A DNA stretch of 64,000 nucleotides from an uncultured Poribacteria bacterium (GTDB lineage: Bacteria; Poribacteria; WGA-4E; WGA-3G). The notes beneath the pieces were generated by a model. The model was not told the DNA's origin. It did no database searches and saw nothing but the letters and a program-made list of their open reading frames with translations. A program made the translations under genes and the position numbers. The stretch covers positions 1,920,001-1,984,000 of the forward strand of contig CATQHZ020000001.1 in assembly GCA_958296135.2 (NCBI GenBank), written 5' to 3'. Shown here in pieces: positions 8,138 to 49,338 of this stretch; position 1 is the first letter of the stretch; each line of letters opens with the position of its first letter.

Positions 8138-8587
8138 ATGAGAGCCGTTATTCAACGCGTCACATCTGCCAGTGTCACGGTAGCGGGTGAGCTTGTCTCT
8201 GAAATCGGAGAGGGGTTGCTCATCTTCCTCGGCATTGCCCATGACGATACTGAAGCCGAGTTGGACTATATCGCGAACAAGGTTATCAACCTGCGCATCT
8301 TTGAAGACAGCGAAGGCCGGATGAACCGTTCGCTTTTAGAGACAGGTGGTGCCGCGCTAGTGGTGTCACAATTTACGCTATACGGCGATTGCCGGAAGGG
8401 GCGGCGGCCGAGTTTTATCAATGCCGCGCGCCCGGAACAGGCGAAGGCATTGTATGAGCAGTTCATTGATGTTCTTGCATCGCGGCACATCCCGACACAA
8501 GGCGGCACCTTCCAAGCGATGATGGATGTGCAATTGGTGAATGATGGGCCTGTCACGATTTTGCTGGATAGTCGTAAGCAATTTTGA
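8138..8587 (+). CDS. dtd: D-aminoacyl-tRNA deacylase
   Basis: [19 protein letters not shown]. Confidence 0.95.
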
Positions 8588-8687
8588 AAAGGCTTGACAT
8601 TTGTCAGAAAATAGGGCTCGGTGCAGTGGCGAGAACTCTATGAGAATCTAGCAGAACCTACCCTAATCTATCGATGTGCATTTTGAC

Positions 8688-8716
8688 TTGCATTCCGCTT
8701 GATTTTGTGGTATAAT
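8688..8716 (+). promoter_or_regulatory. Sigma70 promoter for the tnpB1 leader
   Basis: TTGCAT-N17-TATAAT with an extended TG. Confidence 0.75.
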
Positions 8717-8720
8717 ATAG

Positions 8721-8813
8721 TTACCGTTGTGGGCGAGACATCCAAGCACGGCTTCCCGCCGTGTCTCTCGCCCAACCTACCTTGGATGGAGGTTAACCAA
8801 CGGCGAACGGTGA
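8721..8813 (+). ncRNA. Candidate structured, pseudoknotted 5' leader RNA of tnpB1
   Basis: Pairings CCGTTG/CAACGG, TGGGCGAGA/TCTCGCCCA, CACGGC/GCCGTG, AACCT/AGGTT and CATCCAAG/CTTGGATG; covaries with 10983-11237. Confidence 0.55.
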
Positions 8814-9932
8814 TGCCTATGAGATTGAAAACGCATTTAATGGTGTTGGACCCGAATAATAAGCAGGCGACGCTGCTTGCAAAGCACTGCGGCTATGCCC
8901 GCGTAGCCCGTAACCATGCGCTCTCGGAATTCAAGGCAGGACTCGACCGCGATGAATTCCTATCCGATAGGGACTTGCGCAAAAGATTCAACGCCGTGAA
9001 AGACGAACGCTACCCGTGGTGCCGCGAGCTCAGTCAAAATGCATCGAAGAATGGGATTTGCACTCTCGGTGATGCAGTGAAACGCTGGGTCTCTAAACAG
9101 AACCGCTTCCCGCGCTATAAGCACCGATCTGGTAGGATTTCCTACCAAGCTGACAACGGCGCAGGCACGGTGAAGGTGGAGAAAAAGCGTGTGAACCTTC
9201 CGAAGATTGGCTGGGTTCGCCTGCGTGAGAAGTTGCGTTGGCATGGCGAGATTCGGCGGTGTGTCGTCTCAAAACGTGCGGGCAGGTGGTTTCTATCGGT
9301 TCTCGTGAAGGTGGTTTCCGACAGTGCGCCACGTGTGCGTTCTCCGCGCGGTCCTGTGCGTGTGGTTGGTGTTGATGTTGGCATCAAGACACTTGCCGTG
9401 ACATCCGATGGTGTTGAGTTTGAAAACCCGAAGGCACTTTACCGCTATCTGCGGAAGTTGCGGCGTGCGCAGCGTCAATTATCTCGTTCGGTTTACCGAA
9501 GCAGGAATTGGTATCGGAAGCAGTTCCGCGTGCAGAAGAGTCACTATCGTATCTGCTGTCTCCGTGAGGATGCACATCATAAGGAAAACCAGCACGGCGA
9601 TTGTAAAGTCGGCTGACGTTCTCGGCATCGAGCGTCTACGCGTGGCAGGCTTGTTAAAAAACCGCCGTCTTGCAAAGGCGTTGAGCGATGCGTCATTAAG
9701 TAGTTTCCTGACGATGCTTCGGTATAAAGCAGCGGCACACGGCGTTGAGATTATCGAGGCACCGTCGAACTTCCCATCGTCGAAGACGTGCAGTGCTTGC
9801 GGGAATAAGAAGACGAAGTTGTCCCTCTCGGAGCGGACATATCACTGCGAGGCATGTGGCGTGGGTATCGACCGCGACTGGAATGCCGCGCATAATTTAA
9901 GAACCCTCGCCGCGAGCTTGACGGAGAGGTAA
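8813..9932 (+). pseudogene. tnpB: TnpB RNA-guided nuclease, frameshifted
   Basis: LPKIG and GVDVG in one frame; GIE, SSKTCSACG and DRDWNAA in another. About 4 extra bp at 9584-9587 relative to the paralogue. Confidence 0.88.
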
Positions 9933-10081
9933 AACGGCTGCGGAGCGACTATAAGCCCTCATAGTAGGCACACCTCGTGTGTCTCGGAGGCACGCCGCAT
10001 TGAAACAGCAACTACGACAGATAAGAGGACAGGTTAGATTAGAATAGATTTGTCCAGATTATCATAAGTTCTAGGGAGCGG
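9900..10081 (+). ncRNA. Putative omegaRNA/reRNA scaffold of tnpB1
   Basis: Overlaps the tnpB 3' end and runs to the right end; shares GAACCCTCGCCGC, TTGACGGAGAG, CTG.GGAG, TTGAA.CAG and TTGTCCAGAT with 12306-12493. Confidence 0.6.
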
Positions 10082-10088
10082 TAGACTA

Positions 10089-10952
10089 ATGAAACGTTGG
10101 ATCGACACCATAAAACAAGGCGACTGCATTCAGTTGATGGCGGAAATGCCGGAGGAATGCATCGACCTGCTCATCACGGATCCGCCGTTCGCCATTGATT
10201 TCAAAGCGATTCGACATAACTACAACCGAAAAGGAGAACGTGTTCTTCAAGGTTACAACGAAATTGAAGGTAACGATTACCTCGCGTTCACGCTTGAGTG
10301 GCTCTCACAAGCGACGAGGGTGCTTAAGGATTCTGGTAGCATGTATATCTTCTCCGGATGGAATCATCTGAAAGAACTGCTGATCGCCATCGATTTTTGC
10401 GAGCTGACAACCGTTAACCATCTGATTTGGAAATATCAGTTCGGTGTGGTAACACGGCGAAAATACGTCACGTCGCATTACCACTGTCTTTTTGTTTGCA
10501 AAGAGGACAGGAAGCGGCAGTTCCATCCCTTTTCCCGTTTTGATCAGGATGCCAAAACCGAAACCGGCGGTTCGGCACACTACAGAGACAAAGAGGATGT
10601 TTGGGAAATCAAGAGAGAATATTGGCAGGGCGCGGTGAAAACGCCGACAAAACTGCCCGCCGAGCTCATTGAGAAAATCCTCGATTATTCCAGCGAGAAA
10701 GGCGATGTGGTTTTGGATCCGTTTTTAGGTTCGGGCCAGGTTGCTGTCGTCAGCAAAATGAAAGGACGACATTACGTCGGATTTGAGATTGTGCCGGCGT
10801 ATTATGAATTCGCACGAGATAGACTCAAATCCGGAAAATATCTAATTCAGCACGCAGAAAAAGAGGCAGAGGGGCTAGCACTGTTCAACAAGGAGGACGT
10901 TCCTAGCTTCCGAAAATCGAGACACATCGTGATAAAAGCGGATTTATCGTGA
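10089..10952 (+). CDS. Orphan N4-C/N6-A DNA methyltransferase (beta-class motif order)
   Basis: TDPPF motif IV precedes DPFLGSG motif I; no adjacent restriction nuclease. Confidence 0.9.
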   Translation: MKRWIDTIKQGDCIQLMAEMPEECIDLLITDPPFAIDFKAIRHNYNRKGERVLQGYNEIEGNDYLAFTLEWLSQATRVLKDSGSMYIFSGWNHLKELLIAIDFCELTTVNHLIWKYQFGVVTRRKYVTSHYHCLFVCKEDRKRQFHPFSRFDQDAKTETGGSAHYRDKEDVWEIKREYWQGAVKTPTKLPAELIEKILDYSSEKGDVVLDPFLGSGQVAVVSKMKGRHYVGFEIVPAYYEFARDRLKSGKYLIQHAEKEAEGLALFNKEDVPSFRKSRHIVIKADLS

Positions 10953-10982
10953 TAAACGCCAACATAAGTGCTATACGAAGTG

Positions 10983-11237
10983 TTACCGTGTTGGGCTCGG
11001 TCGAGCGTGCAGTGTTATTCGGGAGACCGAATAACACCTCTTCGGCTCAGCAGATCGTGCAGTGTTTTTTGTAATAACAAAAAACACATCTTCGGAAACC
11101 GGTTTGGAAACCTTTGCAAACCTGCCTACACGAGCTGCAGCAGCGTGTATTCACGCTCGCCTACACGCCCGCCCGCCAATGATATCACCGCCAGCGCATT
11201 GCCCACCCTAGTGATATAGGCGAAACACGGCACACGG
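10983..11237 (+). ncRNA. Candidate structured 5' leader RNA of tnpB2 with a 181-bp insertion
   Basis: CCGTGTT/AACACGG; TGGGC+AATG/CATTGCCCA split by the insertion at 10997-11177; CCTA/TAGG hairpin whose loop GTGATA pairs with TATCAC. Confidence 0.55.
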
Positions 11238-11246
11238 GAACACCTC

Positions 11247-12326
11247 ATGAAAACGCACAATATTGCACTGCGCCCGACAGCGGCACAGGTTACCCAATTC
11301 CATCAGCACGCGGGCTATCGCCGATTTGTCTATAACTATGCTCTGTCCGATTTCAAAGCGGGCTTAGCCGAAGGCGAATGGCGAAACGGCCGCACGTTGC
11401 GAACTCGGTTTAATGCCGTGAAGGACACGCAGTTTGAATGGCAGCAACCGCTCATCGCCCGCGTAGCATCACATGCCTTCGATGATTTTAACACGGCGTG
11501 TCAACGGTGGAAAAACAAAATCGCCAAGTTCCCGAAGTATAAGCGGAAGTCGGGTAAACAATCGTTTCGCGTCGACAATAAACGCAATGCGATAAAATGT
11601 GAAGGTAAACGGCTTTACCTGCCAAAGATAGGTTGGGTGCGGACGTTTGAAGCGTTGCGGTTCAAAGGCGACGTGATGCGCGTAGTGATTAAGAAGCGAG
11701 GACATCGTTGGTTTGCATCGGTGCTCGTCGAAACCACGCCCCGAGCCAAACCCGATTTACGCGGGTTGCCTCCCGTGGGTATCGATGTCGGTATCAACAC
11801 CCTCGCCACTTGCTCTGATGGACGCACCTTTGGAAACCCACGCGCCTTGGCCCATTATCAACGTCAACTCCGCCGTGCGCAACGCGCCCTAAGTCGTTCA
11901 GTCTATCGCAGTCAGAATTGGTGGAAGAAGAAGGAACGTGTTGTCCGTATCCACTATCGTATCGCTTGCATCCGCGAAGACGCGCATCACAAGGCCAGCA
12001 CGGCGATTGTGAAAGGTGTCTCAGCAATCGGGATAGAATCTCTGAACGTGAAAGGCATGATGAAAAACCGTCGTCTTGCGAAGGCATTGTCGGACGCGGC
12101 ACTCGGGGGATTTCTCTCCAAGTTGAAGACGAAAGCACAGGCACTTGGCGTGCATATTGAGGAAGCCTCTCAGTGGTTCGCTTCCTCGAAGACGTGCAGT
12201 GCATGCGGACATAAAAAGGATACCCTCACGTTATCGGAACGTGACTATCACTGCAGCGACTGTGGATTGCGGATAGACCGCGATTTGAACGCTGCAAGGA
12301 ATTTGGAACCCTCGCCGCTGGTTTGA
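11247..12326 (+). CDS. tnpB: TnpB RNA-guided endonuclease, intact
   Basis: RuvC D/E/D (GIDVG, GIESL, DRDLNAA) and C4 zinc ribbon (CSAC, CSDC). Confidence 0.93.
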   Translation: MKTHNIALRPTAAQVTQFHQHAGYRRFVYNYALSDFKAGLAEGEWRNGRTLRTRFNAVKDTQFEWQQPLIARVASHAFDDFNTACQRWKNKIAKFPKYKRKSGKQSFRVDNKRNAIKCEGKRLYLPKIGWVRTFEALRFKGDVMRVVIKKRGHRWFASVLVETTPRAKPDLRGLPPVGIDVGINTLATCSDGRTFGNPRALAHYQRQLRRAQRALSRSVYRSQNWWKKKERVVRIHYRIACIREDAHHKASTAIVKGVSAIGIESLNVKGMMKNRRLAKALSDAALGGFLSKLKTKAQALGVHIEEASQWFASSKTCSACGHKKDTLTLSERDYHCSDCGLRIDRDLNAARNLEPSPLV

Positions 12327-12493
12327 CGGAGAGGAGTGGGTATTACCTCTCGTATCCGAGAGGTAATACCTTAAACGCCTGTGGAGCTCGTGTCAGACTT
12401 CGGTTGCGAAGCAGTGAGTGTTGAAGCAGGAACTTTAGAAATCGGACAGACTCATACGGACTTGTCCAGATATGTCTCGATTTCAGGGAACAG
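12306..12493 (+). ncRNA. Putative omegaRNA/reRNA scaffold of tnpB2
   Basis: Homologous to 9900-10081, with an extra perfect 14-bp hairpin GGTATTACCTCTCG-TATC-CGAGAGGTAATACC. Confidence 0.6.
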
Positions 12494-12500
12494 ACACCCC

Positions 12501-14141
12501 ATGCATAACAGACCTCCGACTATCGGCGAATATCTCTTACGAAAACTGCATCACTACGACATTGAACACATCTTCGGGATCCCCGGCGATTATGTGCTGC
12601 GGTTCTATCACCTCATTGAGCAGGGCCCCATCCAGCACATCGGCATGACACGCGAAGACGCAGCCGGATACGCAGCCGATGCTTACGCACGCCTCAAAGG
12701 CATGGGTGCCGCTTGTGTCACCTACTGTGTCGGCGGACTGTCAATGGTGAACGCTATCGCGGGTGCCTACGCCGAAAAATCGCCTGTCGTCGTGATTAGC
12801 GGTGCACCCGGCATCAAAGAACGCGGTAAGGACGCACTGCTGCACCACAAAGTGCGCGACTTTCACACGCAACAGCGCATCTACGAGCAGATTACCGTCG
12901 CAACCGCACTGCTGGATGAACCATTCTCCGCCTTCAACGAGATCGACCGGGTGCTTGATGCAGTTTACCGATATAAACGGCCCGGCTACATTGAACTCCC
13001 CCGCGATATGGTGGACATCCACGGCTCTCTCCATCAACGTCCCTCAACAGGCGGACACCTCAGCGACCCGGCCGTTTTGGATGCCGCCGTTGAAGACGCG
13101 CTCGATTTCATCAACCATAGCAAAAATCCGGTGATTCTCGCCGGCGTGGAACTCCACCGATTCGGGTATCAAAACAAACTGCTCAGGTTGGTGGAAGAAA
13201 AGCGTATCCCCGTGGTGGCGACACTCCTCGGCAAATCGGTGATGCAGGAGGGACATCCGCTCTACCTTGGCGTTTATGAGGGCGCGATGGGAAGGGAAAA
13301 TGTCCGCCAATTCGTCGAGAACTCCGATTGCGTCATCATCCTCGGGGCCTTCATGACAGATGTGAACCTCGGCATTTACACAGCCAACCTTGAACGCGGG
13401 AAATCCATATACGCGACATCGGAAAAGATTGCCGTGCGCTATCACGCTTATGAAGAAGTCATGTTGGACGATTTTATTCACGGCCTCACCTCACCGAATC
13501 TTCGGAAACGGAAGAAACCGAACGTGGAATGGGCAAAGCAGCCCTCCGAATCTTTTGAGGTATCTGCAGACGCGCCGTTAAGCGTGGCACGTCTGTTCCA
13601 GCATCTCAACGAATTCATGAGCGAAGGGCTGACGGTTATCGCCGATGCAGGCGATAGTCTTTTCGGCGCGTTGGATTTGCGGATGCGCCAACGCAACGAT
13701 TTTATCAGTCCTGCTTATTACACTTCCATGGGGTTTGCTGTGCCAGCATCCGTCGGCGCGCAGCTGGGCAGGCCGGACACGCGGCCTATCGTTATCGTCG
13801 GCGATGGCGCGTTCCAAATGACCGGGACAGAACTCTCCACAACGGCGCGCTACGGGCTCAATCCGATTATCCTCGTCTTAAACAACCACGGTTACGGCAC
13901 GGAACGGCACCTCCACGAAGGCAGGTTTAACGACATTCGGGACTGGAACTATAGCCGACTGCCGGAGGTATTCGGTGCTGGGAGAGGCTACCATGTCCGC
14001 ACCGAGGGCGAATTTGACGCTGCCTTCAAAGCCGCACTCGCGGAGACTGAGCACTTTGTCCTAATCGAAGTGGAACTTGAAAAGTTAGACAAGTCACCGG
14101 CATTGGCACGGTTGGCAGAACGAATGTCTGATAAAATCTAA
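12501..14141 (+). CDS. TPP-dependent alpha-keto acid (pyruvate/indolepyruvate) decarboxylase
   Basis: IFGIPGDY, AADAYAR, LLHH, GDGAFQMT...NNHGY. Confidence 0.9.
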   Translation: MHNRPPTIGEYLLRKLHHYDIEHIFGIPGDYVLRFYHLIEQGPIQHIGMTREDAAGYAADAYARLKGMGAACVTYCVGGLSMVNAIAGAYAEKSPVVVISGAPGIKERGKDALLHHKVRDFHTQQRIYEQITVATALLDEPFSAFNEIDRVLDAVYRYKRPGYIELPRDMVDIHGSLHQRPSTGGHLSDPAVLDAAVEDALDFINHSKNPVILAGVELHRFGYQNKLLRLVEEKRIPVVATLLGKSVMQEGHPLYLGVYEGAMGRENVRQFVENSDCVIILGAFMTDVNLGIYTANLERGKSIYATSEKIAVRYHAYEEVMLDDFIHGLTSPNLRKRKKPNVEWAKQPSESFEVSADAPLSVARLFQHLNEFMSEGLTVIADAGDSLFGALDLRMRQRNDFISPAYYTSMGFAVPASVGAQLGRPDTRPIVIVGDGAFQMTGTELSTTARYGLNPIILVLNNHGYGTERHLHEGRFNDIRDWNYSRLPEVFGAGRGYHVRTEGEFDAAFKAALAETEHFVLIEVELEKLDKSPALARLAERMSDKI

Positions 14142-49166: not shown

Positions 49167-49240
<74 letters not shown>

Positions 49241-49252
49241 GCAAGATCAGAG

Positions 49253-49338
49253 TGGTCGAGGAGGGACTTGAACCCTCACGCCTTTTTATGGGCGATGGAT
49301 TTTAAGTCCATTGTGTCTACCGATTCCACCACTCGACC
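49253..49338 (-). tRNA. tRNA-Leu(TAA)
   Basis: GGTCGAGTGGTGGAATCGGTAGACAC-ATGGA-CTTAAAA-TCCAT, long variable arm, TTCAAG. Confidence 0.95.

Follow-up and report, generated by a model that had tools for sequence, protein, structure and literature searches.

A 64,000-nucleotide (nt) stretch of DNA from an uncultured Poribacteria bacterium (GenBank assembly GCA_958296135.2, contig CATQHZ020000001.1, positions 1,920,001 to 1,984,000), which is called the window below and whose own numbering is used throughout, contains two IS607-type elements without a tnpA gene. In both of them we found a pseudoknotted leader RNA upstream of the nuclease gene tnpB, and the two copies belong to a large and real RNA family whose fold was confirmed by covariation. 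The 3' strand of the closing helix P1 is present twice in tandem, so the 5' strand is able to close the junction in two ways. We consider the leader to be a cis-acting 5'-terminal element in which the two P1 closures would control ribosome access and perhaps the stability of the messenger RNA (mRNA), and we give this reading about even weight. All features lie on the plus strand unless stated otherwise.

Distribution and covariation of the leader family

Covariance-model search found 21 leader copies in this genome. The first model (R1) was built from 15 unique copies of this genome, and a broader model (R2) from 25 matches found with R1. Of 36 other genomes in the same taxonomic family, 11 had divergent copies that R1 detected, and R1 matched none of 24 genomes from three other families of the order. 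With R2, 90 of 111 other genomes of the family were matched, with approximately 548 matches in all, so the statement in an earlier reading of this DNA (the original prediction) that the covariation rests on only two copies is superseded. In a phylum-wide sample, two families had R2 matches, one in 79 of 99 genomes and the other in 5 of 26, and seven other families, with 25 genomes in all, had none. As far as searched within the phylum, only two families of Candidatus Poribacteria have the leader. The window itself was assigned to Candidatus Poribacteria by the housekeeping DNA near it.

Pairing was counted in the model-fitted alignment A5, which held 69 matches, 67 of them distinct. Among the 67 distinct copies, 94.8% of the cells of the structure (pseudoknot included) were paired, compared with 69.3% after shuffling (500 shuffles, none as high) and 38-55% when the partners were slid, and 29 of the 32 leader pairs showed changes on both sides, which bears out the covariation that had been proposed. 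The pseudoknot columns lie outside the model and were still 92% paired, with compensatory changes in six of the eight pairs. On the gene strand there were 117 G-U cells and 25 A-C or C-A cells, and this excess indicated that the gene strand is the one that folds. Upstream of tnpB in this genome, the leader fold occurs in four sequence versions, each with its own loop-bulge pairing (CATCCAAG/CTTGGATG, CCTACTAAG/CTTAGTAGG, CTGCTAG/CTAGCAG and ATATCAC/GTGATAT).

The leader is approximately 90 nt long and has the architecture of a three-way junction formed by P1, a P2-P3 arm and a P4 hairpin, and the loop of P4 pairs with a bulge between P2 and P3 to form an 8-bp pseudoknot. From 5' to 3' the order of parts is P1, P2, pseudoknot strand, P3, junction, P2 3' strand, P4, A-rich junction, and then the P1 3' strand twice. 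P1 has 6-8 bp and P2 has 7-10 bp across the family, while P3 is variable, with loops of 3-25 nt. The 5' pseudoknot strand directly abuts P2 with no spacer in 63 of the 67 copies and is followed by 1-2 variable nt. The junction from P3 to P2 is 2 nt long in 66 of the 67 copies; it reads UC in 53 and is GU-like in almost none. The A-rich junction after P4 reads UAAA(N) in 39 of the 67.

Leader copies in the window

The helices P1 and P2 and the pseudoknot, as originally proposed for both copies, were each found in the sequence. Copy 1 (8720-8813) was matched by R2 with 94.2 bits (E 5.8e-29), and it shows the fold and the covariation of the family. Its P1 in the proximal closure (P1a) is CCGTTG (8724-8729) with CAACGG (8798-8803), P2 is TGGGCGAGA (8730-8738) with TCTCGCCCA (8766-8774), and the pseudoknot is CATCCAAG (8739-8746) with CTTGGATG (8781-8788), the latter in the P4 loop. 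The inner hairpin P3 occupies 8747-8763 and is followed by the 2-nt junction UC (8764-8765), the P4 hairpin ACCT/AGGT (8775-8778 with 8790-8793) and the A-rich junction (8794-8797). The alternative closure P1b pairs 8720-8728 with the distal P1 3' strand AACGGUGAU (8806-8814), which includes AACGG (8806-8810). The minimum free energy of copy 1 had a z-score of -3.16, and none of 200 shuffled sequences was equally stable.

Copy 2 is split in two. The 5' part (10982-10996) holds GTTA, the 5' strand of P1 and the first half of that of P2, and the 3' part (11178-11241) holds the remainder of P2, both pseudoknot strands, P4 and both P1 3' strands. P1 is CCGTGTT (10986-10992) with AACACGG (11224-11230), followed by C and then ACACGG (11232-11237); P2 is TGGGC (10992-10996) plus AATG (11178-11181) with CATTGCCCA (11197-11205); the pseudoknot is ATATCAC (11182-11188) with GTGATAT (11211-11217). 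The P3 hairpin is absent from this type of leader. The 181-bp insert that had been suspected within P2 lies exactly at 10997-11177 and consists of two tandem 50-nt hairpin units, and the sister copies L006 and L008 lack it, with GGGC directly followed by AATG. There are four identical copies of the insert in the genome, all within the leader of element-2-type copies. L008, the uninterrupted sister of copy 2, scored 37.6 bits with R2 (E 2e-9).

Hairpin repeats of about 50 nt (GTGCAGTG..., loop, ...CACCTCTTCGG), which resemble repetitive extragenic palindromic sequences or miniature inverted-repeat transposable elements, are inserted in several elements, and they also occur in L017 (at about 1110-1190 and at 1385-1430) and at the left ends of the copies at C1:203139, 3122327 and 4732826.

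A coding reading of the leader was rejected, despite copy 1 being open in the tnpB frame (open reading frame (ORF) 8699-9616), because variants of 94 and 99 nt and ATG spacers differing by 1-2 nt leave no conserved frame and because the changes are compensatory pair by pair.

Promoter and predicted 5' end

Copy 1 is preceded by an extended -10 element, TG-g-TATAAT, at 8708-8716, from which the predicted transcription start is at about 8723, and copy 2 has the promoter element TG-c-TATACG upstream. No -35 element lies 16-18 nt from the -10 of copy 1. So the promoter-like motif of the original prediction stands as an extended -10 element in both copies and in family-wide counts, with copy 1 lacking a -35. 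A simple sigma-70 scan for -35 and -10 elements listed the promoter of neither window copy, which for copy 1 is explained by the missing -35. Across the family, a -10 hexamer was found in 62 of the 67 leader copies and in 25 of the mononucleotide-shuffled controls, and a -10 accompanied by a -35 or a TG extension in 59 of the 67 and in 6 of the controls. The -10 ended 7-10 nt 5' of the first P1 pair in 58 of the 62 copies that bear one, a spacing that predicts an RNA start 0-3 nt before P1. Judged from these motifs and their spacing, each leader copy probably stands directly behind its own sigma-70 promoter, and its transcript probably begins 0-3 nt before P1.

Two closures of P1 and the ribosome-binding site

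The duplication of the P1 3' strand was found in every sequence class, and the distal strand changes along with the 5' strand. Classes that keep it include ACGTGAT-ACGTGAT, ACGCGAT-ACGCGAT, CAAACTGG-A-ACTGG and CAACGG-CG-AACGG. In 75% of the 67 copies the distal strand formed at least seven contiguous pairs with its own 5' strand, compared with 22% for non-cognate partners. On alignment columns, P1b was 54.8% and 64.6% paired in two registers and 23-39% paired at other offsets; the tail is not aligned by the model, so the signal in columns is diluted over the two registers, and the per-sequence test is the better measure.

In most copies, 3-8 nt separate the end of the distal strand from the start codon, and in most the distance from the motif to the ORF start is no more than 9 nt. 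In copy 1, the distal strand contains GGUGAU, which is complementary to the 3' tail AUCACC of the 16S ribosomal RNA of this genome and lies 5 nt before the ATG at 8819, so that the distal closure P1b covers the Shine-Dalgarno sequence. These results agree with the original prediction, in which P1 was said to be able to slip onto the start-codon or ribosome-binding region: all classes are duplicated, and the distal strand stands at the ribosome-binding position. Nested folds constrained to P1a or P1b were at most 3.1 kcal/mol apart in 10 of 11 representatives, and unconstrained minimum free energy folds closed P1b for two variants and P1a for two. The near-isoenergetic closures therefore look, in these folding calculations, like a two-state element that would switch between them.

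Genes downstream of the leader

The placement in the tnpA slot was also borne out. A related IS607 copy in this genome (L029, G000:C1:3725077-3729144) carries a frameshifted serine-recombinase tnpA (854-1529) behind the same TGTGGTATAATATAG promoter and has no leader, so that the phrase "in the tnpA slot" is literally correct for it. Each of the 21 leader matches in this genome stands before a tnpB gene, in three protein lineages, and in other genomes the leader precedes at least four further TnpB lineages.

The range of genes is wider outside this genome. When 48 downstream ORFs were scanned with Pfam, 11 encoded TnpB and 37 did not. There were seven N6_N4 DNA methylases and two D12 DNA methylases, and GIY-YIG/NUMOD3, HNH, TIR, Hypoth_Ymh and IS3 OrfA domains were found as single cases. 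About 17 of the 48 encoded signal-peptide proteins of 113-152 aa without a family, and for this small protein Pfam gave nothing and a protein atlas look-up gave only scores below 0.9. In IMG/VR, at least 120 stretches matched a P2-stem pattern, and R2 was run on 80 of them; locus L246 was matched with 46.3 bits plus a weak second match, and the other 79 were unconfirmed by R2 and rejected as chance matches. On an IMG/VR contig the leader heads an operon of a methylase and a BglII-like endonuclease. Several leader copies cluster within a few kb on the same contigs. The common theme of the leader-headed genes is mobile and defence genes, many of them acting on DNA.

The CCTACTAAG-type leader fronts two tnpB lineages (G000 copies T09-T15 and copies T23 and T27), which are approximately 45-55% identical to the TnpB of element 2, and in L022 two leader versions are joined in a chimera. 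On these comparisons, recombination seems to exchange cassettes of promoter and leader. There is a resemblance between the left end of the elements (e.g., 8650-8670; AACCTACCCTAATCTAGCAG) and the P4/pseudoknot segment of CTGCTAG-type leaders (CACCTATCTAGCAGC), and this may be accidental or may record the route by which the leader came into the elements.

Proposed mechanism and alternative explanations

From the observed structure, covariation, position, distribution and gene partners of the leader, we infer that it is transcribed, that its two closures alternate and that some factor may tip the balance between them. The RNA would start 0-3 nt before P1 and fold into the three-way junction locked by the 8-bp pseudoknot. 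Closure on the proximal strand (P1a) would leave the ribosome-binding region free, and closure on the distal strand (P1b) would mask it. The leader would thus act in cis on its own mRNA and set the translation level of a potentially harmful product, such as the TnpB nuclease, the products of restriction-modification genes or homing endonucleases, and its 5' end, being fully paired, would probably shield the mRNA as well.

Several observations weigh against this two-closure reading. The class formed by L046, L075 and L166-L168 has its own AGAGG-type ribosome site 34-160 nt downstream, so masking of the ribosome site is not universal, and its distal P1 strand is followed by a U-run (ACACATCTTTTTT). 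In these copies the device may work at the level of transcription. The distal pairing is shorter than 7 bp in 25% of copies, and P1a and P1b shut the same junction with no evident discriminator between them. There are few conserved unpaired nucleotides (UC, AC and UAAA), thus no obvious ligand pocket, and no metabolic theme among the downstream genes. The nested helices were counted on the model-fitted alignment, which favours them. Finally, four of the eight element-2-type copies in this genome have the 181-bp insert in P2 and two lack the 5' half, with tnpB intact, which means that the leader is dispensable at least in the short term. The genes of the L046-type class encode a large exported protein.

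A broader idea takes the leader for a new RNA that catalyses or senses, either a self-cleaving ribozyme of circularly permuted pistol type or a riboswitch-like sensor of cell state, that would serve Poribacteria and their mobile elements as a common gate for genes which cut or modify DNA, such as those of TnpB, restriction-modification systems and homing endonucleases; we regard this as unlikely. The leader does share features with riboswitches and other translational-control leaders, as it is a 5' untranslated region behind a promoter with a pseudoknotted domain and with mutually exclusive, near-isoenergetic pairings, one of which lies over the ribosome site. It differs from them in having no candidate ligand and no coherent gene set, few conserved unpaired nucleotides, alternatives that close the same junction, and one class distant from the start codon. 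The diversity of the leader-headed genes also makes a metabolite riboswitch unlikely.

It is likewise unlikely that the leader is a 5'-terminal stabilizer only, in which the paired 5' end would block 5'-end-dependent decay and the two P1 registers would keep the fold closed with or without a ribosome, with no switching. 5' stem-loops do stabilize bacterial mRNAs, and the predicted transcript start 0-3 nt from P1, the pairing of nearly every nucleotide, the one leader class that sits far from the start codon and the diverse downstream genes all fit such a role. However, a simple hairpin would suffice for it, and an 8-bp pseudoknot, a strict 2-nt junction and conserved nucleotides over hundreds of copies suggest more. 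The distal strand also tracks the ribosome-binding position.

The main rival is a new self-cleaving ribozyme, because the topology of the leader is a circular permutation of pistol, with the hairpin 3' instead of 5' and with P1 as an extra closing helix. Pistol is described (PMC4604425; PMC6154101; PMC6795133) with a pseudoknot from the hairpin loop to the left P2/P3 junction and with a strictly 2-nt right junction that is the cleavage site, and read circularly, the parts of the leader come in that same order. Like pistol, the leader is small, its P4 loop pairs with the P2/P3 bulge (92% paired), and an A-rich UAAA(N) linker follows the hairpin (39 of 67). Its P3-to-P2 junction has the 2-nt length of pistol in 66 of 67 copies but reads UC in 53. 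Its neighbours (IS605-type orfB/TnpB, DNA methylases and phage-type endonucleases) resemble the mobile and phage-type setting in which the twister, hammerhead, pistol and hatchet ribozymes were discovered. For that setting, PMC4604425 names only "certain phage genes".

But the ribozyme explanation is unlikely on several grounds. Among the ten highly conserved nucleotides of pistol (PMC6154101; PMC6795133) are the junction nucleotides U29, purine 32, G33, G40, C41 and G42, and these catalytic positions have no counterpart in the leader, where the spacer between P2 and the pseudoknot is zero in 63 of 67 copies and only 1-2 variable nt follow the pseudoknot strand. The junction is UC and not the GU of pistol, the pseudoknot has 8 bp and not 6, and the copy-2 type in the window is without P3. 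No Rfam ribozyme matched at E<=10 in 8400-12700 or at E<=1 at 20 loci, although a linear model is blind to a permuted form. Cleavage would also explain neither the duplicated P1 strand nor the fixed distance to the start codon.

A 5' RNA module dedicated to TnpB, whether as a second ribonucleoprotein partner (a ribonucleoprotein partner was among the options of the original prediction), a guide-like RNA or an autoregulatory TnpB site, is very improbable. It would suit this genome, where all 21 matches precede tnpB of three lineages, the leader replaces tnpA behind the same promoter, and at least four more TnpB lineages carry it elsewhere. But 37 of the 48 scanned downstream ORFs are not TnpB, and the diversity of the leader-headed genes, including the IMG/VR methylase and BglII-like endonuclease operon, removes the TnpB-partner reading. 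For IS607 TnpB, the right end is the source of the guide RNA (PMC11061315). The loops of the leader pair mutually and leave no free guide-like segment.

A DNA-level signal, such as IS200/IS605-like single-strand hairpins or a recombinase site of the transposon, can be set aside almost entirely: TTAC, which is the IS608 target site, does precede P1 in the window copies and the elements have structured ends, but the motif lies approximately 106 nt inside the left end (8614 versus 8720) and is not subterminal, also fronts non-transposon genes (37 of 48 ORFs), always stands between promoter and start codon and has its G-U excess (117:25) on the gene strand only, and the IS607 serine recombinase acts on double-stranded DNA.

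Relation to known RNAs and novelty

Insertion sequences are known to carry leaders that block translation, by fold-back inhibition in IS10 and by a stem-loop over the ribosome site in IS200. Like them, the leader is a 5' RNA structure of a transposon that pairs an upstream strand with the ribosome-binding site. The IS10 and IS200 leaders are simple hairpins, each of a single insertion sequence, whereas the Poribacteria leader is a pseudoknotted three-way junction common to unrelated genes across a bacterial family. Another structured RNA of the same IS607-type elements is the RAGATH-18-derived guide RNA, which is encoded 3' of tnpB in overlap with the right end and includes the guide (PMC11061315). 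The leader differs from it by lying 5' of tnpB, having no free guide segment and serving non-TnpB genes too.

The original prediction could assign the leader to no known family, and the searches agreed with this. Among the 4227 models of Rfam 15, none matched either copy at E<=10 (8400-12700) or the motif loci of 20 relatives at E<=1, and a scan of the whole window at gathering thresholds returned only two tRNAs. ARAGORN found no tRNA- or tmRNA-like gene in 8500-12600. No paper on the leader or on a Poribacteria RNA motif was found in the literature, with motif lists in supplements lying outside that search. A motif named "Poribacteria-1" was reportedly included in a 2017 survey; if it is in Rfam 15, it gave no match to the leader. 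The leader is apparently, on these comparisons, an RNA family not yet catalogued. It is a new family within a known general kind, the structured 5' leaders, and is unusual in its pseudoknotted junction, its twin closures and its use on TnpB, restriction-modification and endonuclease genes.

The customary picture of a solo-TnpB element is a nuclease gene and a guide RNA located 3' of it. In this phylum, the tnpA slot is occupied by a conserved knotted 5' RNA in at least seven TnpB lineages. Operons for restriction-modification and the genes of orphan methylases, homing endonucleases and a TIR defence protein carry the same leader, and this points to shared control at the RNA level of genes whose products would damage DNA if over-made. 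With its covariation, pseudoknot and alternative closures, the leader is a well-defined candidate for bench work and for RNA family databases, and its presence can mark islands of mobile and defence genes in sponge symbionts. Self-cleavage, if shown, would make it the first relative of pistol with a permuted fold.

The two elements and the methylase gene between them

Element 1 (8614-10081) has the left end GGGCTCGGTGCAGTGG... and the right end ...GTTCTAGGGAGCGG, with bounds set by the divergence of the flanks among approximately 20 sister copies in the genome. Its tnpB (8819-9932) is frameshifted into the overlapping ORFs 8699-9616 and 9408-9932, one of which bears the Pfam domain OrfB_IS605 and the other Cas12f1-like_TNB. 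Its right-end region (9933-10081), judged from its position and its conservation among the sister copies, is presumably the template of a guide RNA (omega/reRNA) scaffold; it had no Rfam match in the scan of 8400-12700. Element 2 (10892-12493), delimited by the flank divergence of eight sister copies, has the left end GGAGGACGTTCC... and the right end ...TTTCAGGGAACAG, and the two ends form an inverted repeat. Its tnpB (11247-12326) is intact and encodes 359 aa with the Pfam domains HTH_OrfB_IS605, OrfB_IS605 and Cas12f1-like_TNB. In its right end, a weak RAGATH-18-like match (12378-12432; 24.3 bits, E 0.26, below the Rfam gathering score of 44.9) marks a putative guide-RNA scaffold. This position agrees with PMC11061315, in which IS607 TnpB uses RAGATH-18-derived guide RNAs encoded at the right end, 3' of tnpB.

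An N6/N4 DNA methylase gene (10089-10952; Pfam N6_N4_Mtase, E 4.6e-38) lies between the two elements, and element 1 stops 7 nt upstream of its ATG. The last approximately 20 codons (about 60 nt) and the stop codon of its ORF belong to the left end of element 2 (10892-10952), and the original 3' end of the gene was replaced by the insertion. If element 1 were removed, TTGACA (8594-8599) would sit approximately 14-16 nt before TAGACT (10082-10087), just 5' of the methylase ATG. On this arrangement, the promoter of the methylase itself may have been split by the insertion of element 1 (8590-8613 and 10082-10091), and given such an insertion, the guide of element 1 would match the start of the methylase gene.

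The two tRNA genes, the sole Rfam matches above the gathering score in the window, are adjacent to each other at 49167-49338 on the minus strand. The genome has approximately 32 tnpB loci, among which copies fall into groups of 8, 8 and 13 (94-97% or 44-56% identity), and the sole closely related tnpA, that of L029, is frameshifted after its N-terminal helix-turn-helix. Two more IS607-like loci (G000:C1:3567328-3568795 and 4836328-4837798) have a distant serine recombinase beside a weak TnpB match. These recombinases are 42-43% identical to the L029 tnpA and are the only other serine-recombinase matches in the genome, and the weak TnpB matches beside them lie in long open frames of 555-561 aa.

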